Shown here piece by piece: positions 1-64,000 of a stretch of 64,000 nt of DNA; the first letter of the stretch is position 1, and every line of letters begins with the position of its first letter. The notes under the pieces are model-generated. The model made no database searches and was not told where the DNA came from. It saw only the letters and a program-made list of their open reading frames with translations. Source of the DNA: Deltaproteobacteria bacterium (GTDB lineage: Bacteria; Desulfobacterota; Desulfarculia; Adiutricales; Adiutricaceae); the NCBI GenBank assembly GCA_031254895.1, contig JAIRTO010000324.1, forward strand, positions 13-64,012, in the 5' to 3' direction. The translations under genes were made by a program, and so were the position numbers.

Positions 1-37
1 CGCGGGCCGCGGGGGCGCCCGGAGCGCCCGGGCCCGA

Positions 38-1258
38 TTAAGGCAGAGGTTCTTTGGTGAGGTCGACGGGATTCTCTTCCAAGGTCATGTCGAAAACCTT
101 GGCGTCGTAAGTCTCCAGAAGCTTCCAGATGTTGACGCCCGAGCCGGTCGGGTCGGCTTCGACCATGACGACTTTGCTGAGAAATTGATGAGTGCGCGGA
201 TCCACGTAAGTGGGCGTGTCGCGCAGATTGTCTTCGATCTCCATGCCTTCCAAAGCCAGGATGATCTTGTCGACGTCGTCGGCCGAACCGGCCTTTTCGA
301 TGGCTCTGGCCACGGCCTTCAGGGCCACGTAGCCGTTGTAGTTGGTGCTGTCCAACACCGGGAGGATGGCGTCGGGGAACATTTCGTGGAATTTTTCCGA
401 AGCGGCTTTCATCTTCGGATTTTCGTCCCAATAGATTTCAGCCGCATAGTAGCCGCGATGCTCGTCGGCGGGCAGCGGGTAGCCGTCGACGAAGTCTTGC
501 AGGGTGTAAACGACCTGCATTTTGTCGTGAATGCGATATTCGGCCAGTTGCTTGAGCAAGGCCACGTTGTCGAAGCCGGCGCAGGTGATCATTAGGACGT
601 CCGCGTCGGAGTCGCGCACCTGCAAAAGCTGGGCGCTGAAATCGCGGGTGCCCATGGGGAACTTGACTTCGCCTACTTCGGTGCCGCCGTTTTTGGTCAG
701 AACGTCGCGAGCCCATCTGGTGCCGGAATGACCCCAGGAATAATCGTGGGTCATGAAGAACCATTTCTTGCCCAGATTATTGATGGCGTAAGTGCCGGCG
801 GCTCGGCCCAGACTGGCCATGTTGGGAGCGACTCGAAACATGTTGCGCACGGCCCGGGTGGAAGTCAGCTCGTCGGAATTCGCGTTGGTGGCGATGTACA
901 GCGCCCCGCGCTCCTGAGCCACCGCCCCCACGGCCATGCCGACGGAAGAGTTGACTCCGCCCATGAAGATCTTGATGCCGTCTCTTTCAATCAGACCGCG
1001 CACCCGTCGGGCGGCGGTGTCCGGATTGGTTTCGGAGTCCGCCACCACCAGCTCCACCGGACGACCCAAAATGGTTCCGCCCAATTCCTTCAAGGCCATT
1101 TCCATGCCGGCCCTTTCCAGAACGCCGTGGTCGCCGTAATTTCCGGAAACGGGGCTGACCACTCCGATTTTCAACGTCTCTTGAGCGCTCGCCGAAACGG
1201 CCAGGCCGAAGAAGAGACAAAAAGCAAACAGAAGACCGCTTAAAACCGCCTTTTTCAT
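38..1258 (-). CDS. ABC transporter periplasmic substrate-binding protein, branched-chain amino acid (LivJ/LivK-like, type 1 PBP) family
   Basis: 406-aa ORF with a signal peptide (MKKAVLSGLLFAFCLFFGLAVSASA). It continues LKIGVVSPVSGNYGDHG..., typical of Leu/Ile/Val-binding proteins. An AGGAGG RBS lies upstream on the minus strand (plus strand reads cat gactacctcct). Confidence 0.85.
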   Translation of the reverse strand: MKKAVLSGLLFAFCLFFGLAVSASAQETLKIGVVSPVSGNYGDHGVLERAGMEMALKELGGTILGRPVELVVADSETNPDTAARRVRGLIERDGIKIFMGGVNSSVGMAVGAVAQERGALYIATNANSDELTSTRAVRNMFRVAPNMASLGRAAGTYAINNLGKKWFFMTHDYSWGHSGTRWARDVLTKNGGTEVGEVKFPMGTRDFSAQLLQVRDSDADVLMITCAGFDNVALLKQLAEYRIHDKMQVVYTLQDFVDGYPLPADEHRGYYAAEIYWDENPKMKAASEKFHEMFPDAILPVLDSTNYNGYVALKAVARAIEKAGSADDVDKIILALEGMEIEDNLRDTPTYVDPRTHQFLSKVVMVEADPTGSGVNIWKLLETYDAKVFDMTLEENPVDLTKEPLP

Positions 1259-1463
1259 GACTACCTCCTAAAAAGTATGTCCAGTCATTTCAAAGCCGCC
1301 CGTAAAAAGGGCGGGGTTTCAGGATAAAAAAGCCTTTGCCCTAAGAAACGAATCAGACCGCGCCGCTTGATTCGTCTTTGGATCGACGCCGTCGGCCAGG
1401 AAAGCGGCTGACGTCGGCTCGCTTCCCCTCCTTTTCCGGCGAAAAAAAAGTGAGAGGGCCTTA

Positions 1464-1481
1464 AATGTAATCGGTTACATT
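1464..1481. promoter_or_regulatory. Perfect 7-bp inverted repeat AATGTAA-TCGG-TTACATT, a candidate operator upstream of the livJ-like gene
   Basis: Palindrome read directly from the sequence, about 206 bp upstream of the minus-strand start codon. No cognate regulator was identified. Confidence 0.2.
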
Positions 1482-2342
1482 AACAGGCCGCCACATTTTC
1501 GAGAAATTTCTCCCTCGTTTTAAAAAGGCGCAATTATGATCAGGAACTGAACTAACGACGCGCCATAGGGCGAAAACGCCGCGACGTCGTTAAAGTCTTG
1601 GTATAATAGGCTGAAGAACAAAGTCTCGACGACAAGCGTTTTGGTTTCGCGTCATTGAGACTCGTTCGGCCAAAGAAAAGAAAAAAACGCCGACCGATTT
1701 GGACGATAATCGTCGACCTTACGGCGAGCCGAAAGGCGGACGATTATGTAACCCGATACATCGGAGACTAAAAGTTGAAAGATTCGGTCGGTCTGACAAA
1801 AAAGCCTTATCCGACGAACAGAATGATAATCGCGGCGTCAACGCTGAAATTTTTGGGGGCCCTTTCGGGAGTCGCCTTTCGCGTCGTCGCGAAAGGAAAG
1901 CAAAACGCCGGGCGATTATGGGAAAATCTAAACTGATTTTTATGTCAAAAAGCTATATTGGCTGTTGCCAAATCCTACCAAAAATATGAAAAAAAGGCAA
2001 GCTTTTTTTTCGTTTTTTTTAGAGGCCAAATTGAGAGGCGCCTTGCCGAACGGAGCCAAGCTCCGCTCGGCTCCGTCGCGGTAGACTTGCGGCCTGGCTG
2101 CGCCGCGCTCCTTCGCGGCTTCGCTTTCTATGGCGGCTTGGCTGAGTCGCGCTCCTTCGCTGCGTCGCTTTCTATCGCGGCATGGCAGAGTCGCTTTCTT
2201 TGGCCGCTTCGCGGAGCGGCTGATGAAGCCGTGCCAAGGGCTTCCGGCGTCAAAAGAAAATAGGCCCGTTTGGGCGCCTTAAAAAGGATCAATATATAAA
2301 GTGAACTGGCCATCGCCGTCGCGGCCTTCCCTCGTAGGTTTG

Positions 2343-2440
2343 GCGAGGGAAATCGGACGAGACGATGCGGACGAAACGAAGCGGACGAAGCGAATCGGGC
2401 GAGGCGATGCGGACGAGACGATGCGGGCAAGGCGACGCGG
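2343..2440. repeat. Degenerate stutter array of gcggacga / gatgcgg words
   Basis: gcggacgagacgatgcggacgaaacgaagcggacgaagcgaatcgggcgaggcgatgcggacgagacgatgcgggc; short words reiterated with substitutions. Confidence 0.7.
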
Positions 2441-2757
2441 GAAAAATTAAGGGGGGGGGCAAGGAGCGACTCGATAAGGGCTTTTCAGTCTTCGCGACCT
2501 GGCTCTAACCGACGATGTTGGTTGTCGGGCTCCAGCCGAGCTTCTGGGGCGCCTCTCTCGCCTGTTCGCCGGTTTTATTTTTGGAGTTCGTTTTTATTAG
2601 AGACGCTTTGTCCGAAAGCCGGACTTATTGACCTTCGACCATCCTCCAAAGACGACCAACAGACGACCAACAGACGAACGACTCGTCAAACGTGTTTTCG
2701 TTTCGGCGGCTTAGCCGAGGAAGGCGAAAAAAAAATGACGGACTTCGCAAAAGGATC

Positions 2758-2785
2758 TTGACATCACGGCGCAAATGTTTATATT
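2758..2785 (+). promoter_or_regulatory. Sigma70-type promoter candidate for groES-groEL (TTGACA-N16-TATATT)
   Basis: TTGACA at 2758-2763 and TATATT at 2780-2785. A CIRCE-like element lies immediately downstream. Confidence 0.45.
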
Positions 2786-2794
2786 TGCATTTGT

Positions 2795-2821
2795 CTGGCA
2801 GACGAGGGTCGAGAGTGCTAA
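2795..2821 (+). promoter_or_regulatory. CIRCE-like (HrcA operator) element with a degenerate left arm
   Basis: Sequence is CTGGCAGAC-N9-GAGTGCTAA versus the consensus TTAGCACTC-N9-GAGTGCTAA. The right arm is perfect and the left arm matches 5 of 9. It sits just after the -10, upstream of groES. Confidence 0.35.
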
Positions 2822-3102
2822 TCCGACTCCTTGTGAATCTTCCGTTTCTTGGATCTGTCTGAGAGCTGATTTTTACATTGGACGTTTCTCTTGTTCAGCG
2901 TCAATTTCATGACAAGAAAGTGTTTATCTTATCTTTTATCCGCAAAGTTACATTTTTGTTAATTTAATATTGACTAACATAGGGTTTTAGTTCTGAACGA
3001 ACTATAAATCTTTCCACCTTCCTGTTTCGACGACAGGAATTAGGTTAACGGAACCAGTCGCAAGACTGTGTTAAGCATGCACATTTAATAAGGAGTAAAG
3101 AC

Positions 3103-3390
3103 ATGAACGTGCGTCCTTTATCGGATCGGATTCTGGTCAAACGCCTTGAGGAAGAGGAAAAGACCAAAGGCGGAATCATCATTCCCGATACGGCCAAAGA
3201 GAAGCCCCAGCAGGGCAAGGTGGTGAACGTCGGCGAAGGCAAGGTTCTGGACAACGGTTCCAGAGTGACCCCCGGCGTCAAAGTCGGCGAGACCGTCTTG
3301 TTCGGCAAATATTCCGGAACCGAGATTAAGCTGGACGGCCAAGAGTATTTGATCCTTCGCGAAGACGACATCTTCGGCGTCATCGAGTAA
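3103..3390 (+). CDS. groES: Co-chaperonin GroES
   Basis: 95 aa, [41 protein letters not shown]...; canonical Cpn10 sequence with an AAGGAG RBS upstream. Confidence 0.97.
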
Positions 3391-3397
3391 GCGAAAC

Positions 3398-3435
3398 TCG
3401 GCGAAAGCCGTCCGAAAGAGCTTCGCCGAATTTTT
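3398..3435 (+). terminator. Terminator-like hairpin after groES (8-bp stem TCGGCGAA/TTCGCCGA, then ATTTTT)
   Basis: The stem arms at 3398-3405 and 3422-3429 are perfectly complementary, with a T-run at 3431-3435. It lies inside the unusually long groES-groEL spacer. Confidence 0.4.
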
Positions 3436-3451
3436 GGCTTCTTTTTAATGA

Positions 3452-5347
<1,896 letters not shown>

Positions 5348-5362
5348 TCTTCGTCCAATTCC

Positions 5363-5395
5363 GAGCTCTGGAGACGACGCGCGTCTCCGGAGCTC
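5363..5395 (+). terminator. Strong 14-bp hairpin downstream of groEL, with no clear U-tract
   Basis: GAGCTCTGGAGACG-acgcg-CGTCTCCGGAGCTC, with one G-U pair, 16 nt after the groEL stop. Confidence 0.45.
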
Positions 5396-5473
5396 CGGCT
5401 GATTGTCTTGATGAAAGCACGCGAAACGGTCGGGATTCGTCCTGGCCGTTTTTTTTGTTTTGACGGGAGACTG

Positions 5474-5545
5474 ACGAACGCGGACGAACGCTTTGACGAG
5501 CGCGGAAGAGCGCGGAAGAGCGCGGAAGAGCGCGAACGAGCGCTT
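5474..5545. repeat. Stutter array with cgcggaagag x3 and flanking acgaacgc words
   Basis: Exact 10-bp unit cgcggaagag at 5501-5530, flanked by related words. Confidence 0.75.
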
Positions 5546-6461
5546 GGCCGAGCTCGGCGATGCTTCGGCGGAAGAGAAGGTCGGCCCCCTTTGGGGATGA
5601 TTTGCTGGGCTTCTTTTTGGCGGATAGGGAAAAATTTCGACCAAAAAGGCTCTTGAAATTTAGTCGTCAAATTTTCGGAAGAGAAGGGTCGGAAAGAAGT
5701 CCGAACCCTGGCCGATAGATCGGCCAAAAACGGCGGGGAGATCGCTCCCGCCAAAGGGGCGGCCGCACCTTTGGCGGGTTCGGCGGGACAGCCTAAGGCC
5801 CTTTTGGTCGAGTTTTCTTTTGACGGCAGGAAAGACTAAATGATCCTAGTTTGGATGTAATCGATATTTCCAGATAAATATAAAAATGCGCCCTAAACGA
5901 AAACAATGGCGACGCGAAGAGGACCAAGCGAGGAAAGGGGGAGAATAGGGCGGCGTTTTGAAAAATAATTAGTGTTTTTGTAGAATTGTCTGAAAAGCGT
6001 GGTTTATTTGAAACGGCATCATATAAATCAATATTTGCCTATTTCTGCCGAATTGTCTTTTTATCCCATATGTTGCGTTAATGGGCCAGCTTTCGGGCTA
6101 GATGTTGCGAGGCGAGGTCAGGAAAAAATAACCCCCCGAAATCTTGATTTCGCGGTCGGCTTGTGTTATTGTTTTCGCATGGTTAGTCCAAATGACACCA
6201 GAATGACGCGTTGCGTGAACTGATTTTGTCTCTTTGTTCGGCTAAATTCCCGTTCTCGGACTAAGTCGAGCTAAGTAGCGTTTTTTATGGTTTTTCGGGA
6301 TTATGAACATTTTTCGGCTAACGCTAGTTTTGTTCATGATTCCTCTGTTTATTCAGGTCTGATCAAAAACAGGCTCGCTCCCTTTAGCCTTAAAGTCAGG
6401 ATCAAACTGAACCCTTAAGGCGCCGACGGGGCGAAGGTTGATCTGACCTGCAGCGGAAGGT

Positions 6462-7052
6462 ATGACGCCAATGGAGAATTCAAGAAATTTATGGGTGATA
6501 AGACCCGAACCAAATTTCGTTAATCGTTTGGGCGTTTTTTTGCGCGAAGGCATTGTGGCCATCGGTTGGCCGGCGGTCGGCGATCTTAACGGCTTGTCGC
6601 GCGAGGGGCTCTCGGAGCGTCTGACCGACACTTACAATCATTATCTGAACGAACAGAAAAGCGATTTGGCCGTGGCCGCCGGAGTTCTGGATCGTTTCGT
6701 CAACCAAATCAACGCCGGGGACGTCGTTCTGGTGCCTGACGGCCAGGACGTCTATTTGGCCAGAGTGGACGGTCCCTACGAATACCACTCCGAGTACAGC
6801 CCCGACACCCCTGACGCCGGCTATCCTCATTGGCACAAAGTCAATTTTCTCAACTCCGGCCGTCCTTTATGCCGCATCAGGGAATTGCCTCTTGGCGTCA
6901 GACGGAGCATTGACTGCCGATTGACCGTCTTTTCCATCCATTCAGCGGCCAAGTCGATGTGGAGTTTCTTGGACACGCAAAAAATCGGGGGCCTCGAGTC
7001 GACGGCTGCGGCGTCCGCTGCGGTAAGAGAGATCAGATCTAGAGCCGTATGA
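6462..7052 (+). CDS. Hypothetical protein with a PUA/EVE-like domain of the kind found at the N-terminus of some Mrr/McrB-type restriction proteins; no nuclease or NTPase domain
   Basis: 196 aa with a GGAAGG RBS. The pattern is NLWVIRPEP...FLREGIVAIGWPAVGDLNGLS...INAGDVVLVP...YLARVDGPYEYH...HWHKVNFL...TVFSI. From memory this matches N-terminal sensor domains of Mrr-cat/McrB-like proteins. The gene sits in an AT-rich islet. Confidence 0.6.
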   Translation: MTPMENSRNLWVIRPEPNFVNRLGVFLREGIVAIGWPAVGDLNGLSREGLSERLTDTYNHYLNEQKSDLAVAAGVLDRFVNQINAGDVVLVPDGQDVYLARVDGPYEYHSEYSPDTPDAGYPHWHKVNFLNSGRPLCRIRELPLGVRRSIDCRLTVFSIHSAAKSMWSFLDTQKIGGLESTAAASAAVREIRSRAV

Positions 7053-8005: not shown

Positions 8006-9301
8006 ATGAAAATGAAAAAAAAGATCCCTTTGGTCGGCGCGGCTTTCCTCGCCTTTCTCTTGGCCGTTTTGACGCCGTTATGGCCAGGCTCTCTTTTCGC
8101 TCAGGAGGGCGGCGGATCTCTGAGCGGCCAGATGTCGGACTATCAGGAAATCAGGCGACAGATTTCCCGCACCATGGAGGCGGCTACGGTCTGGGTGATA
8201 GTCACTAACGGGCATGACCTCGAAGGAACCGGGACGGGGTTTTCGGTCGCCCCCGGCTACATAATGACCAACGCTCATGTGGTCGGCAGCCGGCGGCCCA
8301 AAGGCGACGTGTACCTCATCAACTCGGAGTTGTCTTTGACCAAGGCGGAAGTGGTCGGGTATCTTTTGGACGAAGATACCGGCATGGACGTGGGATTGCG
8401 CGATTTCGCCCTGCTGAAATACGACGTCGCCGGGAAGGCGTCTCTGCCGGTTTTGACCTTCAACCTCGACGTCGTCAAAATGGACAGAATAGGCGCCTGG
8501 GGCTATCCTGGGGTGGTGACCCAATTCGATCAAAGCTCCAGCTCCTTTAAACTTAGAGGCGGAACCCTCGTCGACGTGAAGCCCGCGCCGGTGGTGTTCA
8601 CTGACGGAACCATCAGCACTCTGGTGGAAAATGAGAACGGCGGCAAATCCATCATCCACACGGCCCCCATAAACAGAGGCAACAGCGGAGGACCGCTGGT
8701 CAACGGGCGGGGGGAAGTCGTCGGCATAAACACTTGGGTCTACTCGGAAGACGAATTCAGCACCGTCAACATCGCCATCACCTCCAACGACATCCTCGAT
8801 TTTTTGAAGCATAACGGCGTCGAGCCCAAATTGGCTTCCGGCCAGACCCATACCGCTTCGGTCAGAAGACCTCCCGTGACCAGACCAGATTCCAGAAGCG
8901 GCTCCAGAAGCGGGTCCAGGGAACAGGAAGACAGAGTAAGACGCGTCGGCGGCTTCAGCGTCAAAGTGCCTAACAATTGGTCAGTGATGATGCAGGAAGA
9001 AGATTGCATCCTATTGACCGACGACGAAATGGAGACCCTGATGTTTTTGGGCATGAGCTCCAACGAAGGACTGCCCATCACCCAAGTGGTCAAAAATTAC
9101 GCCGAGGAGATGGCGGCCAAAGAGCCCGCCTATTTGCCGGATGACGACGTCTGGGTTATGGAAGGCTCGCTCCAAGAAATGGACTGCGTGGTCTTCGTGG
9201 CCGGCGACGAAGCGAAAGACTTGCATTCGGTGGTCTTGATTTCAGGAGAATTCAACAATCCGGGGATTGCCGACATAATCGACAGCCTGGTGGAGCATTA
9301 G
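8006..9301 (+). CDS. Secreted trypsin-like serine protease (S1C/DegP-like catalytic domain, no PDZ seen) with an uncharacterised C-terminal domain
   Basis: I start at ATG 8006 (GAAGGGG RBS, signal peptide MKMKKKIPLVGAAFLAFLLAV). The catalytic triad contexts are TNAHVV, DFALLKYD and GNSGGPLVNGRGEVVGINTW. The ORF-track extension to 7805 lacks support. Confidence 0.85.
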   Translation: MKMKKKIPLVGAAFLAFLLAVLTPLWPGSLFAQEGGGSLSGQMSDYQEIRRQISRTMEAATVWVIVTNGHDLEGTGTGFSVAPGYIMTNAHVVGSRRPKGDVYLINSELSLTKAEVVGYLLDEDTGMDVGLRDFALLKYDVAGKASLPVLTFNLDVVKMDRIGAWGYPGVVTQFDQSSSSFKLRGGTLVDVKPAPVVFTDGTISTLVENENGGKSIIHTAPINRGNSGGPLVNGRGEVVGINTWVYSEDEFSTVNIAITSNDILDFLKHNGVEPKLASGQTHTASVRRPPVTRPDSRSGSRSGSREQEDRVRRVGGFSVKVPNNWSVMMQEEDCILLTDDEMETLMFLGMSSNEGLPITQVVKNYAEEMAAKEPAYLPDDDVWVMEGSLQEMDCVVFVAGDEAKDLHSVVLISGEFNNPGIADIIDSLVEH

Positions 9302-9563
9302 AGGGACGCCTGTCCGGAACATTTTGAAGGCCGGGGAGATGGAGAGCGAACCTGACTTGTCGCCCCGGTCATGGCGACAGGGGGCGCGTCTGCCGGAGGC
9401 GGCGACCTTGGCGGGTCGCGACCTGATCGGCCATCCGGATCGGCTGGCGCGGCCGCGAGGGCTTCGGGCTTGTTTGGCGGGAAAGACCGTCGTTTTTTCT
9501 TCTTCTTTACTCCAAAATAACAGGCGACCGCAAAAATCAGCCTATGCCCGATTTTTTAGAGTT

Positions 9564-12730: not shown

Positions 12731-12865
12731 GGTCAGGCTAAAACCTCGGCGCGTCGTTTAAAAAGTGGAGCAAGCCTTTTTGGCCCTGGCTTCGGTCGCC
12801 GACGCCATGGAGCCAATCAGCTCATATCTTCAAATGTTATCACGAGAAGGCGTGTTTTGCCACAC

Positions 12866-13025
12866 CTGGACTGCCGCGCCTGGACGGCCGCGTTTGGGCC
12901 GTCAGGCCTGGACTGTCGCGCCCGGACGGTTGCGCTTGGACTGTCGCGCCTGGACGGTCGGGCTTGGGCCGTCGCGTCTGGACTGTCGCGCTTGTACGGT
13001 CGCGCCTGGACTGTCGCGTTTGGTT
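12866..13025. repeat. Higher-order tandem repeat built on (c/t)tggactgYcgcg
   Basis: Five copies of the core word start at 12866, 12908, 12936, 12978 and 13006. The spacings alternate 42/28/42/28, giving a period of about 70 bp. Confidence 0.8.
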
Positions 13026-13309
13026 CGTCAGTCTTGGCCCCGTCGGCTTGCCGGCGGGAGAGGGCCGTCTATAGTTCGGCGTCAGGACAGGAGCGCTAAA
13101 CCGATTGGCCCGTTTTGGCGGCCGAGAGAGGCCGGAAAAGCCTTCGGGCTTTTTTTGGGGACGTTTTTTGGAACCGTTTTGGCCTTAGGCTGACGGACAA
13201 TGGCCAGACGGACAATGACCAGACGAAAATGGCTAGGGAGCAGCCAGGCTTGTAATTTTTAATAAAATTGAAATAAATAATAATTATGCGGACAATTTCA
13301 TAATATATA

Positions 13310-13338
13310 TTGACAAAAACATTTTATTAACGTATAAA
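13310..13338 (+). promoter_or_regulatory. Strong sigma70-type promoter candidate (TTGACA-N17-TATAAA) in an AT-rich islet
   Basis: TTGACA at 13310-13315 and TATAAA at 13333-13338. No recognisable gene lies immediately downstream. Confidence 0.4.
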
Positions 13339-13343
13339 AATAA

Positions 13344-13372
13344 CAAGATTAGATAAATCATTTCTAATCTTG
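13344..13372. promoter_or_regulatory. Perfect 10-bp inverted repeat CAAGATTAGA-N9-TCTAATCTTG at the predicted transcription start (operator or 5' stem-loop)
   Basis: The arms at 13344-13353 and 13363-13372 are exact reverse complements. Confidence 0.35.
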
Positions 13373-50058: not shown

Positions 50059-50087
50059 CCCTGATCGTTTCGGATCAGGGCTTTTTT
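50059..50087 (+). terminator. Rho-independent terminator 14 nt upstream of the rubredoxin start
   Basis: CCCTGATC-gtttcg-GATCAGGG followed by CTTTTTT. Confidence 0.6.
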
Positions 50088-50100
50088 AGGGTGATTTCCC

Positions 50101-50262: not shown

Positions 50263-50383
50263 GAATTAGGGAGCTTTCGGCCGGCGCCAAATCGGCCGGA
50301 GGCCGCATTTGGCCTGAAACCATTAACCTGTCGAGTCGTCGGCGGCCTCTGGCCGGCGACTCGTTCGCGTGGCGGGAGGGCAG

Positions 50384-50872: not shown

Positions 50873-51057
50873 TCGTTTCGATTGATCTGATCGTTTCGAA
50901 GTCATGGCCCTTTATCGGGCCATGACTTCGTCAAAATCCCGAACGCTTGCGATCCCTTAAGTTAAGCTCCTCTTCAAGAGCGCCGTCTATGACGGCCGTT
51001 CTTTTTAGCGAAATCGCCAACATATTCATTTTTTCCAAATTGCATAAAGGATTCAAA

Positions 51058-52257
51058 ATGGAACCTGTCAAGGTAACAGACAATATTTATTGGGTCGGCG
51101 CCGTGGACTACGACATCAGAGATTTTCACGGCTATCTGACTCCTCGCGGCAGCACTTACAACGCCTACCTTGTCGTCAACGGCGACGTCGTCACTTTGAT
51201 CGACACCGTCAAGCACGGCCTGGAAGACGAGTTGTTGAGCCGCGTGGCCAAGATCGTCGACCCCTCCAAAATCACTCAAGTCGTCTCCAATCACGCTGAA
51301 ATGGATCACTCCGGCGGTCTGCCGGTCATCATGAAGCGCATCGGTCTGGAAAAGCCCGTCTACGCCAGCTCCATGGGCGTCAAGAACCTCTTCGGCCAGT
51401 TCCACTACGCGGGCATGAACTTGCAAACCGTCCCCGAGAAGCTGGATCTGGGCGGCGAAGATATGGTCTTCCTGGAAACGCGCATGATCCACTGGCCGGA
51501 CAGCATGTTCAGCTTCCTGCCTTCTCAAGGCGTTTTGTTCTCTCAAGACGGCTTCGGCATGCATCTGGCCGCTCCAGAGCGTTTCGACGACGAGGTCGAC
51601 GAAAAAGTCTGGGGTCCCCTGGCTCTCAACTATTTCGCCAACATCTTGACGCCGTACACCGTCCAGATCGGCAAGCTTCTCGAAAAGGTCGCGGCTGACG
51701 GCTTGCTGGCACAGATAAAGATCGTCTGTCCGGATCACGGCTTCGTCTGGCGCAAAAATCCCGGCCGGATCGTGGAATTGTATTCCCGGTGGGTCCAGCA
51801 GAAGCCGGAGAGGAAAGCGGTCATCGTCTTCGACACCATGTGGCATTCCACCGAATACATGGCCAGAGAGCTGACGGACTACCTGGCCTGTCAGGGGATC
51901 GAGACCCGCTATCACAATCTGAAAAACACCCACCGCAGCGTGGCGACCACCGACTGCTTCGAAGCGGCGGCCATCTTGATCGGTTCTCCGACGATCAACA
52001 ACCAGATGTTTCCTTCGGTGGCCGATTTTCTGACCTACGTCAAGAGCCTGAAGTTCAAGAACAAAATTGGCGCCGCCTTCGGCTCCCACGGCTGGAGCGG
52101 AGAAGGGGCCAAATTGGTGCAGGCGGAACTGAAGACCATGGGCTTCGAGGTTCCGTCCGACGAAGTCAGAATCCAATGGGTGCCTCAGGAAAAAGATCTG
52201 GGCCCCTTGAAGGCGTTGGGTCAAACCGTCGCCGAGGCCGTCAAAAAGCTGTCCTGA
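51058..52257 (+). CDS. Flavodiiron protein (FprA / rubredoxin:oxygen oxidoreductase type)
   Basis: Metallo-beta-lactamase-like domain with SNHAEMDHSGG (HxExDH) and a C-terminal flavodoxin-like domain (KAVIVFDTMWHSTEYMA). I use ATG 51058. Confidence 0.92.
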   Translation: MEPVKVTDNIYWVGAVDYDIRDFHGYLTPRGSTYNAYLVVNGDVVTLIDTVKHGLEDELLSRVAKIVDPSKITQVVSNHAEMDHSGGLPVIMKRIGLEKPVYASSMGVKNLFGQFHYAGMNLQTVPEKLDLGGEDMVFLETRMIHWPDSMFSFLPSQGVLFSQDGFGMHLAAPERFDDEVDEKVWGPLALNYFANILTPYTVQIGKLLEKVAADGLLAQIKIVCPDHGFVWRKNPGRIVELYSRWVQQKPERKAVIVFDTMWHSTEYMARELTDYLACQGIETRYHNLKNTHRSVATTDCFEAAAILIGSPTINNQMFPSVADFLTYVKSLKFKNKIGAAFGSHGWSGEGAKLVQAELKTMGFEVPSDEVRIQWVPQEKDLGPLKALGQTVAEAVKKLS

Positions 52258-52258
52258 C

Positions 52259-52744
52259 GTGAGCGGCAGGCAGGCCAAAACCAACGCGGCCAGGTTTTTG
52301 GACGGTCTGGGGACGCCCTACGAGCTCTTGACTTGCCAAATCGATCCGGCCGATCTTTCGGCCGAAACCGCAGCCGTCGCCTTGGGTCTGCCGCCGGAGA
52401 TGGTCTATAAAACATTGCTCCTGCGCGGTTCGGACTCGACCTTGCTCGAGGCTTGTCTGCCGGCCGATCGCGAGCTTGATCTAAAAGCCTTAGCCAAGGC
52501 CGCCGGTCTTCGATCGGCGGCCTTGGCGCCTTTGAAGGAGCTGTTCCCCTTGACCGGCTATCGCCGGGGCGGCTGTTCGCCTTTTGGCGGCAAGCGCCGC
52601 TTTCCTCTCTTCGTCCATGAAGATGTCGTCCTCTTGGACAAGATGGCCGTCAACGCCGGCGCCGTCGGCTTGATGTTTCTTATGAAGCCGGACGATTTTC
52701 TGCGCGCCGGCGAAGGCGTCTTGGCGCCTATAGTCAAGATTTGA
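52259..52744 (+). CDS. ybaK: Cys-tRNA(Pro)/Cys-tRNA(Cys) deacylase YbaK/EbsC family
   Basis: TNAARFLDGLGTPYELL...YKTLLL...GGCSPFG; 161 aa. It starts 2 nt after the flavodiiron stop. Confidence 0.85.
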   Translation: MSGRQAKTNAARFLDGLGTPYELLTCQIDPADLSAETAAVALGLPPEMVYKTLLLRGSDSTLLEACLPADRELDLKALAKAAGLRSAALAPLKELFPLTGYRRGGCSPFGGKRRFPLFVHEDVVLLDKMAVNAGAVGLMFLMKPDDFLRAGEGVLAPIVKI

Positions 52745-53223
52745 TCGAGAGCTTTCGCGTCGTCTTCGCCCCTCCTCCAGGCCCCGCCTTTTTCGCCTTC
52801 CCTCGTCTTGCCGTCTTTCCTTCCGCCTCGCCGTCGCTTAGGCTCTCCGAAGCGCCGCAGCTCAGCCGCTCCGTCTCTCCGCATTGTCGATTGTCGTCGA
52901 ATATGCGATAATTTCGGAGGAAATAAGAGTTTTTCCTGCTCCAAGACGGCTTTTTGGTTCGTCGGCGGAGCCTTGCGTCTCGGCGTCTTTTTTGGCTGTC
53001 GAGGAAACGGCCGTTTTTTTTCGACGCGCGGCGAAAGGTTCATCTTCGCCTCGACGGCGGCTTGCCGGTCTTCGGCGTTATCGCGCGTTCGCCTCGACGG
53101 CGGTTTGGCGTTCTTCGGCCTTTTCGCTCGTTGGCCTCGCCGGACGAGGATGACAAGAACCGTCTCGCCCTTTTCTGACGCTATTTTTTCCGGCCTTATC
53201 TTTTTTTTGGAGAAACGCTCATT

Positions 53224-54669: not shown

Positions 54670-54827
54670 AGGGGCTATTTTTTTTTAAAAATCTCCGCTC
54701 CGTCGGCTTGAGATTGCGGCGGCCAGGTCGACGGGCCAAACGAGACGCCAGGCCTCGGGAGACTCTCTCAGCCCAGGCGAGTTGACAAGCCCCAGACGAC
54801 TCGCTCGGCCCCGGTCAAGTCGCCAGG

Positions 54828-54941
54828 CCCAGGGCAAGTCGCCAGTCCTCTGGGAGAGTCGTTTGAATCAGACGAGTCGCTTCGCCCAGGGCAAGTCGCC
54901 AGGCCCCAGAGAGAGTCGTTCGAACCAGACGAGTCGCCTGG
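54828..54941. repeat. 57-bp tandem direct repeat x2 within a broader stutter zone (54770-54990)
   Basis: Copy 1 starts at 54828 (cccagggcaagtcgccagtcctctgggagagtcgtttgaatcagacgagtcgcttcg). Copy 2 starts at 54885 (cccagggcaagtcgccaggccccagagagagtcgttcgaaccagacgagtcgcctgg). Confidence 0.85.
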
Positions 54942-55335
54942 CCCGGAAAGTCGCCAGGCTCCCGACGAGACGCTTGGCCCCGGCTTGAACAGACCGCCGG
55001 TCGACTGGGGAGCCCGCGACCGATTCTTTCTGCGCCAAATCGGCTCTCCGCCTGTCTTTCTGACCGACTATATGGTCGACTGGCAGGCTGACTAACTGAC
55101 CGACTGGCTGAATGACTGGTTGGCTGATTGGCTGCCCGTCTGACTTATTGATTAGGCTATGGCCGATCTCGCCCGGTTCGGAGCGGGACGCGGCCGTAGC
55201 TTTTTTTTGGCCAACAAAAGCTCCTTACGGATCAGGGCTTTGGGACAAACCTGCCCAACGAGGCACGTTTGGCGAAGCTTATGAAACGAATCGAAGCTTC
55301 GCCCGGCGGTTCTTTCGTATCCCTGGCGAAACTCT

Positions 55336-55540
55336 CGGCCGAACCCCAGGCCAAATCCTTGGCTGAACCCCTAGCCAAATCACTGCCGAATCGCTGCCCG
55401 AATCCTTGACCGAATCTCGGCCAGAATCCCTGACCGAATTTCGGCCGAACCTCGGCAGAACCCCCAGCCAAATCCCAGGCCGAATCCATAGCCAAATACC
55501 CCATCGAATCCACAGCCAAAGCCCATGACCTGACCTCTGG
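55336..55540. repeat. Stutter array of (g)gcc(g/a)aat(c)c words, about 200 bp
   Basis: ggccgaaccccaggccaaatccttggctgaacccctagccaaatcactgccgaatcgctgcccgaatccttgaccgaatctcggccagaatccctgaccgaatttcggccgaacc... Confidence 0.8.
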
Positions 55541-58224: not shown

Positions 58225-58320
58225 TGTTCGCCTTAGGCCGAATTTTGGCCGACTCCGCGCCAATTTGTTCGCCTTAGGCCGAATTTGGTCGACTCCGCGC
58301 CAATTTGTTGGTCTTGGCCG
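58225..58320. repeat. Tandem direct repeat of 40-41 bp, about 2.3 copies, in the pstB-phoU spacer
   Basis: tgttcgccttaggccgaattttggccgactccgcgccaatt at 58225-58265, tgttcgccttaggccgaatttggtcgactccgcgccaatt at 58266-58305, then a partial copy. Confidence 0.9.
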
Positions 58321-58400
58321 GATTTTTATTCAAATTTTCTCGCCTTTGCCGCTTTGCTCGCCTTAGTTTTCTCAGCCTTCGAAAAAAAAGGGGAAGGAAA

Positions 58401-59081: not shown

Positions 59082-59751
59082 AGATGAAGCCGCTCTGAGG
59101 GAGGTCATCGAGTACCGCCTCAATCGGGAGGGCTATCAGGTGGCTTCCTTCGACAACGCCAACGACGCCTTGATCGCCATCGAGGATTGCCCGCCGGATC
59201 TGATTTTATTGGATCTCATGCTGCCCGGCCTTCAGGGGCTGCAGTTTTTGGACATCCTGCGCCAGCGAGACCAGCGCACCCCGGTCGTCGTCATCTCGGC
59301 CAGAACTTCCGAAGAGGACGTCATCCGGGCTTTGGAGCGCGGCGCGGACGATTATCTGCCCAAACCCTTCAGCGTGAAGCTTCTGGAGACGAAGGTCAAA
59401 GTGGCCTTGCGTCGGAGCTCCGGCGAAGAGACGGTTCCGGGAGGTCTCTTGTCCAGCGGAGGGGTGGTCGTCGATCTGGGCGGACACAAGGCGACCATCG
59501 ACGACAAGGAGATCCAGCTGACCCAAAAAGAGTTCGATCTTCTGGTTCTCTTCATCAGAAAGCCCGGCAAGGTTTTTACCAGAAACCAGCTTCTGAACGT
59601 CATTTGGGGCTATGAAAACGACGTCAACAGCCGAACCGTCGACGTCCACATGGCCATGCTCCGCAAGAAGCTGGCCGACAAGGGCCGTTACATCAGAACG
59701 TTGCCGAAGATAGGCTACCTCTGGGAGGTCAGGCCAGGCGAAGCCAAATGA
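59062..59751 (+). CDS. phoB: OmpR/PhoB-family response regulator
   Basis: REC domain (MMIEDEAALRE, LILLDLMLPG, DDYLPKPF) plus a winged-helix domain (LTQKEFDLLVLFIRKPGKVFTRNQLL...VDVHMAMLRKKL). It overlaps the phoU stop; alternative ATGs lie at 59071 and 59074. Confidence 0.88.
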   Translation: MLIMMIEDEAALREVIEYRLNREGYQVASFDNANDALIAIEDCPPDLILLDLMLPGLQGLQFLDILRQRDQRTPVVVISARTSEEDVIRALERGADDYLPKPFSVKLLETKVKVALRRSSGEETVPGGLLSSGGVVVDLGGHKATIDDKEIQLTQKEFDLLVLFIRKPGKVFTRNQLLNVIWGYENDVNSRTVDVHMAMLRKKLADKGRYIRTLPKIGYLWEVRPGEAK

Positions 59752-61823
59752 CCAGCAAATACAAGATATTCGCTTTGATTTTCTTGCCGGCCTCCTTGGC
59801 CGTCGTTTTCGGTCTGGCCTTGGTTCAGCAGAAAAACAAGGACTTGAGCGCCCGGCAGTTTGAAGAGCAGCTGAAAAATCAGTGGCGTCTCGTCTCCATC
59901 ATCCAGCGAACCTCGCTCGATTCGGAGCGGTTCAAAGCGGTCGGCGACGAGCTCGGTCTGCGGGTCAGTCTCATCGATCGCCATGGGGTCGTCAATTTCG
60001 ACAACGGCGGCCAAGACGAGGTTTTGGAAGATCACAGCCAGCGGGAGGAAGTCCGCAACGCCTTTCTCGGCGCGCCGACCATGTCCGCCAGGCGCAGCGC
60101 CACCACCGGCTTGTACACCATCTACTACGCCGATAAGCTGAGCGACGATCTCGTTCTCCGGGTCGCCTATCCGGCCGATTATTACCAACGCCAGGAGGGG
60201 GCTCTCCTGGCTCAGACGTTTTCGGGCCTGACGGGACTCATCGTCGCCGTGGCCGTCTTCGCCTTCCTGGTTTCGCGCTCGACCGGCCGGACTCTGCAGG
60301 AGCTGAGCCGGGCCGTCGCGGCAGCCGAAAAAGGCAGTCTGGTTCTGCAAACTTTCGGCGCCGAATCGCTGGATTCGGCGCTCCATTCCCTCAGCGCGGC
60401 GACCAGAGAGCTGAAGCAGTCCGGCGAGCGGAACGCCGCTTTGAACGCCCGGCTCCTATACATTCTCGGGGCCATCCAAGAGGGCGTGATCTTGATTCAA
60501 GACCAGAGCGTCGTCTTTGCCAACGACAAGGCTTCGGAAATTCTGAATAGTCAGGTTCCGAAGAGTCTTTCGGAAATAAACAAGGCCGATTTGCTGGCCG
60601 TCTTCGAAAGCCTGACCGGCCCTAATCCGCCCGCCGAACTGAACGTCGGCGGCCGGATCGTCTCGGCGAGCCGTCACCGCGCCGATCAGACCACTTTGAT
60701 CATTTTGCGCGACATTTCGGATCGAATCAGGTACAGCGGCTACAAATCCGATCTGGTGGCCAACATTTCCCATGAGCTCAAAACTCCGCTGGCTCTGATC
60801 ATGGCCGTCAGCGAGGTTCTGGCCAAAGACTCGGAGATGCCGGCGGAGAAGAGGGAAAAGTTTTTGAAGACCGTTCATGGCAACGCGAAGAGACTGAACT
60901 CTCTTTTGGACGATCTCATCGCCTTGCACAAGCTGGAATCGACCCAAGAAGTGGAGGCGTCCCAAAGCGATCTGGAAGAAATAGCCGCCGACGTCGCCGG
61001 TCTCGTCGATCCCAAGGACAAGCGGATCGACTGGTTCTGCGACAAAGGACAGGTCAACATAAACTCCAGTCACGTGGCCAGCGTGCTCGTCAATCTCATC
61101 AGCAACGCCGTCAAATATTCTCAAGGGCCGAACGTCGAAGTTTCTCTAAAACGTCTCGGCCGCGAGCTCGAAATAACCGTGTCGGATCATGGGCCGGCCA
61201 TCCCCGTCTCCGAGCGGGAACGCATCTTCGAGAGATTTTATTCTCTGTCCGCCTCCCGAAACCGGGAAAACTCCGGCTCCGGCTTGGGTCTTTCCATCGT
61301 CAAACATATCGCCAGACTGTACGGGGGCCAGGCCCAGCTCCTTTCCGGCGAGTCGTCAGGCCCAAGCGGATCGTCAGGCAACGTCTTCAGAGTCACGTTG
61401 ACGGAAAAAGCCGACGGCGCTTTCGGCGAACCAGCCGACGAAACGGCTGGGGAATATGTCGGCGAATCTGTCGGAGAAACGGCCGGGGAAACGACAATGG
61501 AGTCTGCCGACGAAACCGCCAACGAAGCGTCTGGGAAAACTGTAGGCGAATCTGTCCACGAAACGACCGTGGAATCCGCCGGGGAAACGGTCAACGAAAC
61601 GGTTGGGAAAACTGCCGACGAAACAACCGGCCAAACGGCCAACGAAGCGGCTGGGGAAACTTTCGGAGAACCAGCCGACGAAACGGCCGGGGAATTTGTT
61701 GGCGAACTAGCCGACGAATCTGTCAGAGAAACGGCCGGAGAAACGACCCTGAAGTCTGCCGGCGAAATCGCCAATGAAGCGGCTGGGGAAACTTTGGGCG
61801 GATCTGCCGACAAAACGGATTGA
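59748..61823 (+). CDS. phoR: PhoR-like sensor histidine kinase with a 33-unit tetrapeptide-repeat C-terminal tail
   Basis: ATGA overlap with phoB. N-terminal TM segment, a PAS-like region, H-box ISHELKTPLALI and an HATPase domain (LISNAVKYS, DHGPAIP, GSGLGLSIVKHIA). The catalytic core ends near FRVTLTEKA at about 61410. Confidence 0.85.
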   Translation: MTSKYKIFALIFLPASLAVVFGLALVQQKNKDLSARQFEEQLKNQWRLVSIIQRTSLDSERFKAVGDELGLRVSLIDRHGVVNFDNGGQDEVLEDHSQREEVRNAFLGAPTMSARRSATTGLYTIYYADKLSDDLVLRVAYPADYYQRQEGALLAQTFSGLTGLIVAVAVFAFLVSRSTGRTLQELSRAVAAAEKGSLVLQTFGAESLDSALHSLSAATRELKQSGERNAALNARLLYILGAIQEGVILIQDQSVVFANDKASEILNSQVPKSLSEINKADLLAVFESLTGPNPPAELNVGGRIVSASRHRADQTTLIILRDISDRIRYSGYKSDLVANISHELKTPLALIMAVSEVLAKDSEMPAEKREKFLKTVHGNAKRLNSLLDDLIALHKLESTQEVEASQSDLEEIAADVAGLVDPKDKRIDWFCDKGQVNINSSHVASVLVNLISNAVKYSQGPNVEVSLKRLGRELEITVSDHGPAIPVSERERIFERFYSLSASRNRENSGSGLGLSIVKHIARLYGGQAQLLSGESSGPSGSSGNVFRVTLTEKADGAFGEPADETAGEYVGESVGETAGETTMESADETANEASGKTVGESVHETTVESAGETVNETVGKTADETTGQTANEAAGETFGEPADETAGEFVGELADESVRETAGETTLKSAGEIANEAAGETLGGSADKTD
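61422..61817 (+). repeat. 12-nt periodic repeat x33, read in frame as (A/V/T)(G/D/N)E(T/S) tetrapeptides; 240-nt higher-order duplication
   Basis: FGEP ADET AGEY VGES VGET AGET TMES ADET ANEA ... The block FGEPADETAGE(Y/F)VGE recurs at 61422 and 61662. Two minus-strand frames are also open across it. Confidence 0.9.
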
Positions 61824-62212
61824 TTCGTAGATTTTCGCAATCGGCTTTTGATATGCCGGAGACCGGCGATATTGGCCTATTTTCGTTTCGGTTCTGCTGA
61901 AGATGGAAAGCTGTTGAGAGATTCAAAAAAGATTTTTCCTTCGGCAGCTGACATTGTTCCATTGGCGTCGCCTCGCTCGGAGGCCGGTCAGCCGTTAGCC
62001 GTCACCAGTCGCCAGTAGCCAGTCTCTAGCCTCCAAACCCTAGTTTCTAGTCTCTAACCCCTTTTCTCCCGTCACGCCTTCCTCCTCGGCCAGTCCTTTC
62101 CGCTGGCGGCAATAAATCCCAAAATATCCCCAACTATCCCTATTTTCTGTATATCACCCAGAAAAAGACGTCTCCGTTCGGGCTATTATTCTTCTGACCA
62201 GGTTCAGTTTCA

Positions 62213-62400
62213 GACGCGAGCCGACGCGAGCCGACAGAGCCGACCGAGCCGACCGAGTCGACCGAGCCGCATGAGTCAACCGAGTCGAACGAGTCGGTCG
62301 AGCCAACCGAGCTGACTGAGCCTGTTGAGCCGGCTGAGCCGAACCGAGCGAGCGAACAAACAGAACAGACAGAACATGAAGACAAACAGAGCAGACAGGA
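62213..62400. repeat. Stutter arrays (gaccgagcc-type 9-nt words, then acagaacag words)
   Basis: gcgagccgacgcgagccgacagagccgaccgagccgaccgagtcgaccgagccgc...gagtcgaacgagtcggtcgagccaaccgagctgactgagcc...caaacagaacagacagaacatgaagacaaacagagcagacagg. Confidence 0.8.
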
Positions 62401-62507
62401 CTTACATAACCGACTTAGCCGAACGAGGTAAAAGTGAACAGCTTATAAATTTTATCGGTCAGCAAATTCCGGTTAGTAAAATTCTCGAACCGAAATGCGC
62501 CGCCAAA

Positions 62508-62525
62508 CTTTACAACTATTTTACC
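62508..62525 (+). promoter_or_regulatory. Pho-box candidate CTTTACA-ACTA-TTTTACC upstream of pstS
   Basis: It has the same 7-4-7 architecture and TTTAC(A/C) half-sites as the pstC box, and lies 123 bp upstream of the pstS ATG. Confidence 0.45.
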
Positions 62526-62647
62526 TGGTCTTAAAAGCCATTTGACCCTGAAGGCATAAGATAGTCGCAACTTCAAGCCGCTATCGTCCGGCTGTCAAAA
62601 ATATGACGCCTTTTGTGGCGTCCGAAATCAACCTGCGAGGTATTTAC

Positions 62648-63649
62648 ATGAAAAAGTCGTTATTGGCTCTGGTCTTGGGATTGTCGCTGCTCCTGCCTGG
62701 CTTGGCTTCGGCCAGGGACGTCACCGGAGCCGGAGCGTCTTTCCCTTATCCCATCTATTCGGCCTGGGCCTACAGCTATGAAAAGGAGACCGAAGTCAAG
62801 GTTAATTATCAGTCCATTGGCTCGGGCGGCGGCCTCAAGCAGGTCGGCGAGGGAACCGTCGATTTCGGCGCCTCCGACGATCCCCAGACGTCGGCGGATT
62901 TGGAGAAGGCCGGCTTAATTCAGTTTCCGGCCGTCTTGGGCGGCGTCGTGGCCATAATCAATGTGGACGGCGTGGCCAACAACCAGATGGTTCTGACCGG
63001 CAAGATTCTGGCCGACATCTTTCAGGGGATCATCAGCAAATGGAACGATCCCGCCCTCGCCGCCTTGAACCCAGGCCTAAAGCTGCCGGACGAAACCATC
63101 AACGTCGTCTACCGTTCCGACAGCTCCGGGACGTCGGCCATTTTCACCAATTACCTCTCCTTGTCGTCTCCGGAGTGGAAAAATGCCGTCGGGGCCGGCA
63201 AATCGGTCAACTGGCCGGTCGGGGTGGGGCAGAAAGGGAACGACGGCGTGGCCGGTTCGGTCAAAAGGATCAAAAACAGCATCGGCTATGTCGAGTACGC
63301 CTACGCCTCTGAAAACCGGATAGTCTGGACCAGTCTCGTCAACAAAGCCGGGAAGACCGTCGTCCCGTCCATAGAATCTTTCGCCTCGGCGGCCAGCAAC
63401 GCCCAATGGGATGCTGGTAAGGATTATTTCCTGTGGCTGGTCGACGAAAGCGGAGACGATTCTTGGCCCATCGCGGCGGCCACCTTCATTTTGATCCGAA
63501 AAGACAAACCGGAAGCCTTGGAATCGGTGACCAAATTCTTCGATTGGTGTTTCCAAAATGGAGACGCCCAGGCGGAGGATTTGCAGTATGTGCCTCTGCC
63601 GTCCTCTCTCAAGGACGACATCCGGCAATATTGGCGGAAGGCTCGCTAA
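62648..63649 (+). CDS. pstS: Phosphate ABC transporter substrate-binding protein PstS
   Basis: I start at ATG 62648 (signal peptide MKKSLLALVLGLSLLLPGLASA). TGAGASFPYPIYSAWAYSYEKETEVKVNYQSIGSGGG is canonical PstS. Confidence 0.93.
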   Translation: MKKSLLALVLGLSLLLPGLASARDVTGAGASFPYPIYSAWAYSYEKETEVKVNYQSIGSGGGLKQVGEGTVDFGASDDPQTSADLEKAGLIQFPAVLGGVVAIINVDGVANNQMVLTGKILADIFQGIISKWNDPALAALNPGLKLPDETINVVYRSDSSGTSAIFTNYLSLSSPEWKNAVGAGKSVNWPVGVGQKGNDGVAGSVKRIKNSIGYVEYAYASENRIVWTSLVNKAGKTVVPSIESFASAASNAQWDAGKDYFLWLVDESGDDSWPIAAATFILIRKDKPEALESVTKFFDWCFQNGDAQAEDLQYVPLPSSLKDDIRQYWRKAR

Positions 63650-63814
63650 AGGGGCGTCAAAAGCGCCGAAGCGACTTTATTGGAAAAATGGCCGGGCGAG
63701 TCGGGAGGCGCCTGAAAAGGCCCGGCCGGTTTTATGGTCCTCGTCTCCCGAAGGGGGAAAGAGGAGGCGCCGCCCAGGCAAGGTTTCGTCTGGTAAAGGC
63801 ATTTTGGCTGAAAA

Positions 63815-63848
63815 CTGCGGATCGGCAAAAGATCCGCAGTTTTTTTTT
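63815..63848 (+). terminator. Rho-independent terminator after pstS
   Basis: CTGCGGATC-ggcaaaa-GATCCGCAG (9-bp perfect stem) followed by T9. Confidence 0.85.
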
Positions 63849-64000
63849 GGGCTCTGGCGAACGTCGGAAAATTTCTGGAGGCGGGGGAGAAAGGGCGAGG
63901 TGCGCGGCGATAAAACGCTGGAGAGGGAAAGGGCTCTGGCGAACGGCGGAAAATTGCTGGAGGCGCGGGGAAAAAGGCGGGGCGCGCGGCGAAAAAAAAA
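63849..64000. repeat. Direct repeat of about 67-70 bp with 82-bp period, two copies, running off the window end
   Basis: gggctctggcgaacgtcggaaaatttctggaggcgggggagaaagggcgaggtgcgcggcgataaaa at 63849, and gggctctggcgaacggcggaaaattgctggaggcgcggggaaaaaggcggggcgcgcggcgaaaaa at 63931. Confidence 0.85.

Follow-up and report, generated by a model that had tools for sequence, protein, structure and literature searches.

Most of the longer intergenic spacers in a 64,000-nucleotide (nt) stretch of DNA from an uncultured gut bacterium carry short, degenerate words reiterated head to tail, and the word differs from one spacer to the next. The stretch, here called the window, is essentially the whole of one contig of an NCBI/JGI metagenome-assembled genome (MAG) labelled “Deltaproteobacteria bacterium” (locus tag prefix LBJ64; proteins MDR0356432–MDR0356451 and onward). 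Its arrays are strongly enriched, specific to their locus, not conserved, and turn over between relatives; the observation is real and statistically robust, and it is no artefact. We hold it probable, at about 0.7, that they are minisatellite-like arrays which arise by local slippage or unequal duplication, then decay, and are tolerated under weak deletion pressure. They should be read as a symptom of this DNA's low coding density and not as its main cause. Bacterial genomes are compact, the respective shares of deletion-biased mutation and of selection in this being debated, and lineages that break the rule with a low density are rare and mostly tiny obligate endosymbionts.

Arrays were called with Tandem Repeats Finder (TRF), overlapping rows being merged, and segment-wise dinucleotide shuffles served as the null. 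This yields 72 merged arrays; spacers hold 47 of them, amounting to 2.9 kb, and genes the other 25, amounting to 1.0 kb. Those in spacers are degenerate, with periods of 7–57 nt and 2–15 copies; units are mostly 8–57 nt long and match at 57–95%, and at most three perfect copies stand together. At a TRF score of at least 30, arrays occupy 15.4% of spacer and 2.25% of coding bases (0.5 and 0.4% in shuffles), and at a score of at least 50 they still occupy 13.5 and 1.4% (about zero in both classes of shuffles). Permissive settings give 25–27% of spacer and 6–10% of coding bases, against 2–4.5 and 2–4% after shuffling. Across 67 unrelated bacterial loci, which together hold 162 kb of spacer, arrays scoring at least 50 make up 1.4% of spacer (median 0) and 0.31% of coding DNA, and only two of the 67 attain the spacer load of the window. 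Array load in the window's spacers is therefore 7–10 fold that of its coding DNA and about 10 fold that of other bacteria's spacers, while its coding arrays stand at about four times background. The top of the background set is L027, contig_30738 of an uncultured deltaproteobacterium with 71% GC, where the spacer array load is 19%.

An array scoring at least 50 is present in 20 of the 26 spacers of 200 nt or more. The preliminary description, which had reported stutter in nearly every spacer, was thus slightly generous, six such spacers being without an array (Table 1); the ten words that it offered as examples do all lie in or adjoin TRF arrays, the one at 18766 by direct reading. With the arrays masked, local repetition reaches 1.55 times that of shuffles in spacers and 1.7 times in coding DNA. 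What is left of the spacers is no more repetitive than genes are, which means that only the discrete arrays stutter.

The units are indeed a different one at every locus, as first claimed. When all spacers of the window are compared with each other by blastn, a single 22-nt match is found in total, and units compared with one another, in every rotation and on either strand, are only slightly more alike than shuffled units. Exact unit matches are few: they involve either a repeat of the aspartokinase (AK) gene also present in two relatives, or an 8-nt unit contained in longer units of the window. A dispersed family of the REP or MITE type, which the preliminary description had also set apart from these arrays, is ruled out by the same two comparisons since no consensus is shared among spacers, and the blastn search shows no repeated ends of insertion sequences (IS) or MITEs among them. 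The arrays are equally unlike CRISPR, again as described, their copies being contiguous and degenerate without unique spacers, and the Pfam scans being free of cas domains. Phase-variable contingency loci, which are perfect runs of 1–7-nt units in promoters or 5′ coding sequence, were discarded in view of the unit lengths and match rates given above. Periods range widely (7–57 nt), neither a unit nor a flanking motif is preferred, and no consistent regularity of strand, purine content or orientation appears in the array table.

How the arrays were built can be read in part from their internal structure. Nested periods occur in at least 10 of them (14/42, 10/20, 16/32, 11/23, 19/57, 12/24, 20/40 and 12/24/36/48 nt), and within the 14-nt array at 12861–13030 unit variants alternate in a pattern that recurs every several units; multi-unit blocks have therefore been duplicated again. 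Differences between copies are biased towards transitions, with a transition/transversion ratio of 1.6 over 63 differences versus 0.5 under unbiased substitution. Periods that are multiples of three occur in 19 of 25 coding arrays and in 14 of 47 spacer arrays (Fisher p = 4e-4), the latter being close to the one-third expected at random. Such a contrast is expected if one mutational process operates everywhere and selection purges frame-breaking arrays from genes. The clearest case within a gene is that of the PhoR-like histidine kinase, in which the last ~140 residues are acidic E-T/S-A/V-G repeats encoded by an in-frame 12-nt array. Its 75 homologues, most of them 544–565 residues long, all align over only about 80% of this kinase, in no case over the tail. 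A few relatives have 587–648 residues and possibly tails of their own.

With respect to neighbouring genes, arrays cover 10% of the bases of divergent spacers, 19% of co-directional and 12% of convergent ones. Where promoter and terminator signals are clear, the arrays lie outside the predicted transcription unit, as with 5472–5543 past the groEL terminator and 2354–2441 on the 5′ side of the predicted groES promoter. No CIRCE operator is found 5′ of groES within three mismatches.

Loci of relatives were fetched by their aspartokinase and PhoR. Gene order across 20–36 kb and 53–63 kb is kept in these relatives, and the orthologous spacers are therefore directly comparable. The comparison of coding density and repeat load that had been proposed in advance shows several relatives to be rich in arrays, and others to have 3–80 nt at the same junctions. 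The convergent spacer between AK and hypA, 526 nt in the window, is 461 nt in L161, 110 nt in L164, 82 nt in L167, 54 nt in both L163 and L007, 47 nt in L168, 19 nt in L001 and 3 nt in L003. The arrays in the 461-nt spacer of L161 are AT-rich and unrelated to those of the window; an AT-rich motif seemingly common to the arrays of L161 and L163 (CTTCTAAA-like) was dropped, its match being only 0.82 and within the null range. At the MFS–ftsJ junction the window has 11 nt and L163 has 303 nt, of which 284 nt (L163 332–615) are one array with periods of 13/26/39/78 nt, built of GCTTATAAAAGCG-like units. Between ubiA and pstC there are 958 nt in the window (35% array), 81 nt in L170, 80 nt in L171, and 405 nt in L172, which include a 266-nt array of four 67-nt units. 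No spacer sequence of the window aligns with that of any relative, even though the flanking genes are 65–79% identical at the nucleotide level. A homology between the arrays of the window and L172 at orthologous junctions was likewise rejected, the local alignment scores being at null level.

At a TRF score of at least 50, with coding DNA taken as called genes, spacer DNA lies in arrays to 13.5% in the window, 33% in L163, 15% in L172, 8.6% in L164 and 6.3% in L161, at coding fractions of 72, 85, 84, 73 and 69%, respectively. The share is at most 2.4% in L167, L168, L166 (A. intracellularis), L170 and L171, which are 58, 72, 81, 92 and 87% coding, and the whole-locus load of L001, L003 and L007 is at most 0.5%. 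The array trait is thus recurrent but patchy in the clade, and load and coding density are loosely coupled. Two stretches of more than 2.4 kb in L003 (7018–9498 and 14637–17318) have no called open reading frames (ORFs) despite the very low tandem-repeat load of that locus.

Arrays are gained or lost between species of the clade, and a change of a related kind is visible between strains. Between the near-identical L161 and L162 there are three substitutions over 2.2 kb and a single 35-nt indel (L161 9942–9976); it lies in the spacer 3′ of the AK gene and is flanked by the 11-nt direct repeat CCCGCGGCAGG. Judged from its sequence, this indel looks like the classic trace of slipped mispairing, or else of direct repeats between which sequence was duplicated or lost.

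Coding DNA amounts to ~46.3 kb of the 64 kb, or 72%, when the codon-usage map is completed with the LysR and rubredoxin genes, which bears out the earlier estimate of about 45.9 kb and 72%. NCBI protein numbering (GroES MDR0356432, AK MDR0356451) fits our gene count plus one small gene, between groEL and the protease. One and the same crude caller puts the window at 70.7% coding and 70 other bacterial loci at 86.5% on average; L170, L171 and L001 are 87–92% coding, and orthologous spacers are 5–100 times longer in the window than there. The 257 longest stop-free spacer segments (at least 45 codons) gave as sole Pfam match a genuine 54-residue rubredoxin, whose gene had been counted as spacer in the first gene map and so served as a positive control of the screen. 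Ten individual spacer ORFs had no Pfam match, a tblastx search with the loci of 13 relatives against the spacers found no gene besides the rubredoxin, and neither Rfam (at gathering and E-value thresholds) nor ARAGORN reported any meaningful non-coding RNA.

Table 1. Arrays, spacers and selected genes of the window (positions in nt; periods separated by a slash belong to one array).
Feature	Position	Strand	Unit and copies	Context
Spacer upstream of groES	1259–3102			Divergent; 1.8 kb
Array	2089–2194		44 nt ×2.4	Spacer upstream of groES
Array	2354–2441		14 nt ×6.3	Spacer upstream of groES
Array	2646–2677		11 nt ×3	Spacer upstream of groES
Predicted sigma-70-like promoter	2758–2785			Near-consensus (TTGACA-16-TATATT); ~320 nt upstream of groES
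Array	5472–5543		10 nt ×6.9	Three perfect GCGGAAGAGC copies; spacer 5348–6527, just past groEL terminator (5423–5452)
Trypsin-like protease gene	8006–9301
Array	12861–13030		14 nt ×12	42-nt and 70-nt higher-order structure; divergent spacer 12731–14270
Array	13192–13233		15 nt ×2.9	Smaller neighbour in the same divergent spacer
Array	18794–18869		12 nt ×6.4	Degenerate, 67% match; directly 3′ of acrB-like stop codon
Three adjoining arrays	22762–23029		8/16 nt; 8 nt; 14/28 nt	37% of cheA–cheW spacer
Array	24795–24847		14 nt ×3.8	cheR–cheB spacer, 290 nt versus 43 nt in L163
Array	29468–29614		12/25/38 nt	GTCCAAxCC words; half of spacer 29304–29666, whose ortholog is 41–91 nt in L001 and L003
AK–hypA spacer	31157–31682			Convergent, hence in no need of a promoter; 526 nt
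Array	31280–31326		18 nt	AK–hypA spacer
Array	31359–31394		16 nt	AK–hypA spacer
Array	31482–31578		27 nt ×2.9	94% match; AK–hypA spacer
Two arrays	36172–36308		10/20 nt; 16/32 nt	1.1-kb spacer 35619–36726, one inversion breakpoint
LysR-type regulator gene	38480–39421			Between OMT and ppx, which are neighbours of each other in L170–L172; missed by codon-usage caller
Array	40245–40288		11/23 nt	Spacer 39422–40436
dnaE	43145–46834			All its domains present, intact-looking (Pfam)
Array	46989–47074		22 nt ×3.9	90% match, two perfect copies; dnaE–pfkB spacer
Array	49543–49612		10/20 nt	Spacer 48934–49674
Rubredoxin gene	50101–50265	+		54 residues; 87% identity to L168 counterpart; Pfam match
Array	53045–53143		43 nt ×2.3	Spacer 52745–53223, second inversion breakpoint
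Three arrays	54807–55462		19/57 nt; 8/12 nt; 12/24 nt	ubiA–pstC spacer
Array	58225–58326		20/40 nt	pstB–phoU spacer
PhoR-like histidine kinase gene	59748–61823			Repetitive tail at 61395–61823
In-frame array	61440–61742	+	12/24/36/48 nt	Encodes most of the PhoR-like kinase tail
Array	62001–62062		7/21 nt	phoR–pstS spacer
Array	62217–62349		9 nt ×14.6	phoR–pstS spacer
Array	62354–62398		4/9 nt	phoR–pstS spacer
Array	63849–63996		21/43 nt	Degenerate; at contig end, the source contig (end 64,020) stopping in or next to it
Spacers of at least 200 nt without an array scoring at least 50	9302–9563; 26844–27437; 30135–30373; 33442–33684; 37912–38479; 49915–50383

Taken together, these data point to a simple course of events. 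Local tandem duplication would start with slipped-strand mispairing as DNA is replicated or repaired, or with unequal recombination at short direct repeats. Amplification would proceed stepwise and include the re-duplication of multi-unit blocks, giving rise to the higher-order periods, and the copies would then decay by ordinary, transition-biased point mutation. Such a process would be blind to gene boundaries, genes keeping only tolerated in-frame arrays like the PhoR tail and spacers keeping any period. Arrays and long spacers would persist if, in this host-associated lineage, intergenic DNA were under weak deletion pressure or weak purifying selection, the candidate causes being a small effective population size, an altered fidelity of replication or repair, or both. 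Slippage as the mechanism, neutrality and a weak deletion bias are what we infer. The preliminary description had already proposed slippage, or “cryptic simplicity”; for the arrays it is the best explanation, given their nested periods, substitution spectrum, frame contrast, turnover and the L161/L162 indel, but part of the low density needs another cause. The earlier idea of a lineage-specific process is borne out as well, if patchily: several of the closest relatives share the trait and others lack it.

Several observations weigh against this interpretation. Arrays make up only 15% (strict) to 27% (permissive) of spacer DNA, and spacer filling by stutter is therefore not the explanation of the low coding density. 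Density and load are decoupled: L167 and L168 combine a low density with few arrays, and L163 is array-rich at 85% coding. The arrays of the window have a GC content of 62%, versus 52% for the remaining spacer DNA, and simple neutral slippage does not predict GC-rich arrays. The ubiA–pstC and pstB–phoU spacers are expanded in two species, that of the window and L172; such sites could be permissive ones, but the cause could also be linked to the site. No copy-number variation was seen within the species of the window, which is carried by one sequencing run only, and the replication and repair genes other than the intact-looking dnaE lie outside the window.

One of the other explanations is erosion of genes. 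The long spacers, arrays included, could be decayed pseudogenes or dead mobile elements, so that the low density would stem from recent gene inactivation and not from a gain of DNA. Members of the clade are associated with hosts, the endosymbiont Ca. Adiutrix intracellularis being one of them; relatives are 58–85% coding, the region has been rearranging through a ~17-kb inversion and the LysR insertion, and the non-array spacer DNA (about 75–85%) has no assigned origin. We nevertheless regard this as unlikely: the Pfam screen that caught a rubredoxin of 54 residues found no domain in the other stop-free segments, the tblastx search found nothing else, no repeated IS or MITE ends occur, and most of the expanded junctions are short spacers in the relatives rather than places with extra genes. 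The arrays could instead be functional cis-elements under selection, whether sites for regulators or nucleoid proteins, insulators and spacers, or modules of small RNAs or untranslated regions. Many of them do occupy the stretch from a terminator to the following promoter, arrays abound in the same two orthologous spacers of the window and of L172, and the arrays depart in composition from the spacer around them. The word is however different at each locus, no array sequence is conserved between relatives even at a shared position, other relatives make do with 3–80 nt at the same junctions, convergent spacers carry arrays too, the copies decay with a mutation-like spectrum, and Rfam has no match, all of which makes a selected function very improbable.

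A dedicated, lineage-specific process that seeds or amplifies arrays, such as a template-switching or error-prone polymerase, gap-filling break repair or a site-specific repair defect, would suit a trait that is patchy but recurrent in one clade (the window, L163, L164/L172, L161 and L004) and rare in the 67 background loci, and would also suit the same spacers having been struck independently in two species. The window offers no candidate gene for it, the broad periods come with no preferred unit or flanking motif, and generic slippage accounts for everything observed; we give this process little credence. A wider form of these two ideas combines them: a termite-gut sub-clade of the Adiutricales would have a heritable change that actively seeds minisatellites, through altered or lost repair, template switching or gap filling, or the arrays would have been co-opted as spacing or insulating elements. 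This is a long shot. Finally, the contig is a short-read metagenomic one and ends in the array at 63849–63996, and an assembly artefact had been raised as a concern from the outset. Such an origin is extremely improbable. An independent Logan assembly (L169, run SRR14710884) is 100% identical over window positions 2303–3735 (1,433 nt), three arrays included; L165 equals L164 at 100% over 3,350 nt; and similar arrays are present in contigs from five other samples. The copies are moreover degenerate, and no array is longer than 170 nt (239 nt in the coding case); k-mers and reads can therefore resolve them, and a frame filtering like that of selection is not expected from artefacts. The end of the contig in an array rather suggests that arrays break short-read assemblies and that the tandem-repeat load may be underestimated.

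How does this compare with known systems? Bacterial minisatellites and variable number tandem repeats (VNTRs) are head-to-tail intergenic arrays like those of the window; their units measure roughly 10–100 nt, and slippage or unequal recombination both creates and alters them. The MIRU-VNTR loci of Mycobacterium tuberculosis, a few dozen in number, belong to a single dispersed family and have a consensus in common, unlike the window, where the unit of nearly each spacer is unrelated to the others and the load is about 10 times that of typical bacterial spacers. Cryptic simplicity, a notion of Tautz, Trick and Dover from 1986, is reportedly a scrambled, degenerate reiteration of local motifs with slippage-like turnover, mainly in eukaryotic DNA; the window differs in that its excess repetition is limited to discrete arrays, the other spacer DNA not being “simple.” REP/BIME elements, MITEs and the cyanobacterial heptamer repeats (STRR) keep to one consensus per family throughout a genome, and many are palindromes or carry terminal inverted repeats. 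They are abundant intergenic repeats like the arrays of the window, which however lack similarity between spacers; CRISPR arrays likewise reiterate short sequences, and differ in the ways already given.

The one documented precedent is the genome instability syndrome of the whitefly symbiont “Candidatus Portiera aleyrodidarum” of Bemisia tabaci. Its DNA is 68–69% coding, the intergenic regions are enlarged, tandem repeats have multiplied in them, and there is no bias towards deletions (PMC3673631, PMC5322561). It has lost dnaQ, mutL, ruvC and other genes (Sloan and Moran, 2013, PMC3673631; Santos-Garcia et al., 2015, PMC5322561). The window resembles it in its low coding density, in intergenic regions oversized beside the short ones of sister lineages, in the proliferation of intergenic tandem repeats, in rearrangements tied to such regions, and in a trait limited to one sub-lineage. 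The differences are as plain, Portiera being a 0.36-Mb obligate endosymbiont with 26% GC and repeats that are mostly 7-bp microsatellites (PMC3673631, PMC5322561), and the window having 56% GC, retaining chemotaxis, efflux and two-component genes, and carrying degenerate, locus-specific units of 7–57 nt. The phenomenon is known in kind, from bacterial minisatellites and Portiera-like intergenic expansion, in a new and rather different host lineage, and there is no sign of a new molecular system.

As to that lineage, the AK of the window is 84–75% identical to those on many “Deltaproteobacteria” MAG contigs of termite-gut type and 68–71% identical to that of Candidatus Adiutrix, Ca. A. intracellularis included; a scan of genome contigs gave relatives at up to 77% AK identity. 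These identities place the window in the Adiutricales, in the “Rs-K70” clade known from the termite gut (PMC5322295). Proteins of the contig have no cluster partner at 90% identity or more, and a metagenome scan with a clade-specific protein alignment found no closer relatives or other strains; a DnaE-based metagenome scan was swamped by universal motifs and gave only homologues at up to 48% identity, kept solely as background.

The gene set, obtained with a codon-usage gene caller and Pfam scans, is that of an ordinary bacterium. It opens with a periplasmic binding protein, groES-groEL, a trypsin-like protease and an M48/TPR protease, and continues with acrAB-like efflux genes and a cheA-W-R-B cluster. 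Then come a GT2 glycosyltransferase, a DnaJ-like protein, aspartokinase, tsaE and ftsJ; an MFS transporter, an O-methyltransferase (OMT), a LysR regulator, ppx, guaB and dnaE; pfkB, pth, rubredoxin, rubrerythrin, an FprA-like protein and ybaK; and a HAD-UbiA protein and pstCAB-phoU-phoBR-pstS. The rubredoxin gene, 5′ of rubrerythrin, is easily overlooked and is overlapped by an opposite-strand ORF of 238 codons. The LysR gene may be a horizontally acquired insertion, and its block (38–40 kb) is lower in GC, about 51.5%. For the trypsin-like protease the next-best homologues are only 45% identical, and most of the named ones come from Synergistaceae/Synergistales and not from Adiutricales, a pattern that may reflect gene transfer within the gut community. 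Compared with L168 and L170–L172, window positions 36727–53223 are inverted over ~17 kb, with YbaK/MFS and OMT/UbiA adjacencies. Both breakpoints fall in large spacers (Table 1), which share no inverted repeat with one another; as a single event this is weak support for a tie between spacers and rearrangement.

Most likely, then, the arrays are harmless debris of copying slips that this lineage fails to delete. They are a curiosity rather than a new mechanism, of moderate interest and chiefly so to specialists in genome evolution, with a practical side for the annotation of MAGs, in which arrays entail poor assembly and inflated ORFs such as the PhoR tail and the spurious open frames that run through arrays. 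Should active seeding or co-option be true after all, the clade would offer a natural system with a reversed deletion bias in a free-living-style, motile, GC-rich bacterium. As it stands, within one clade of uncultured gut bacteria equipped with chemotaxis, efflux and phosphate sensing, close species differ several-fold in spacer length and array load at one and the same gene junctions. If whole genomes confirm this, comparing array-rich with array-poor sister MAGs could reveal the gene losses or population conditions that permit non-coding DNA to build up.

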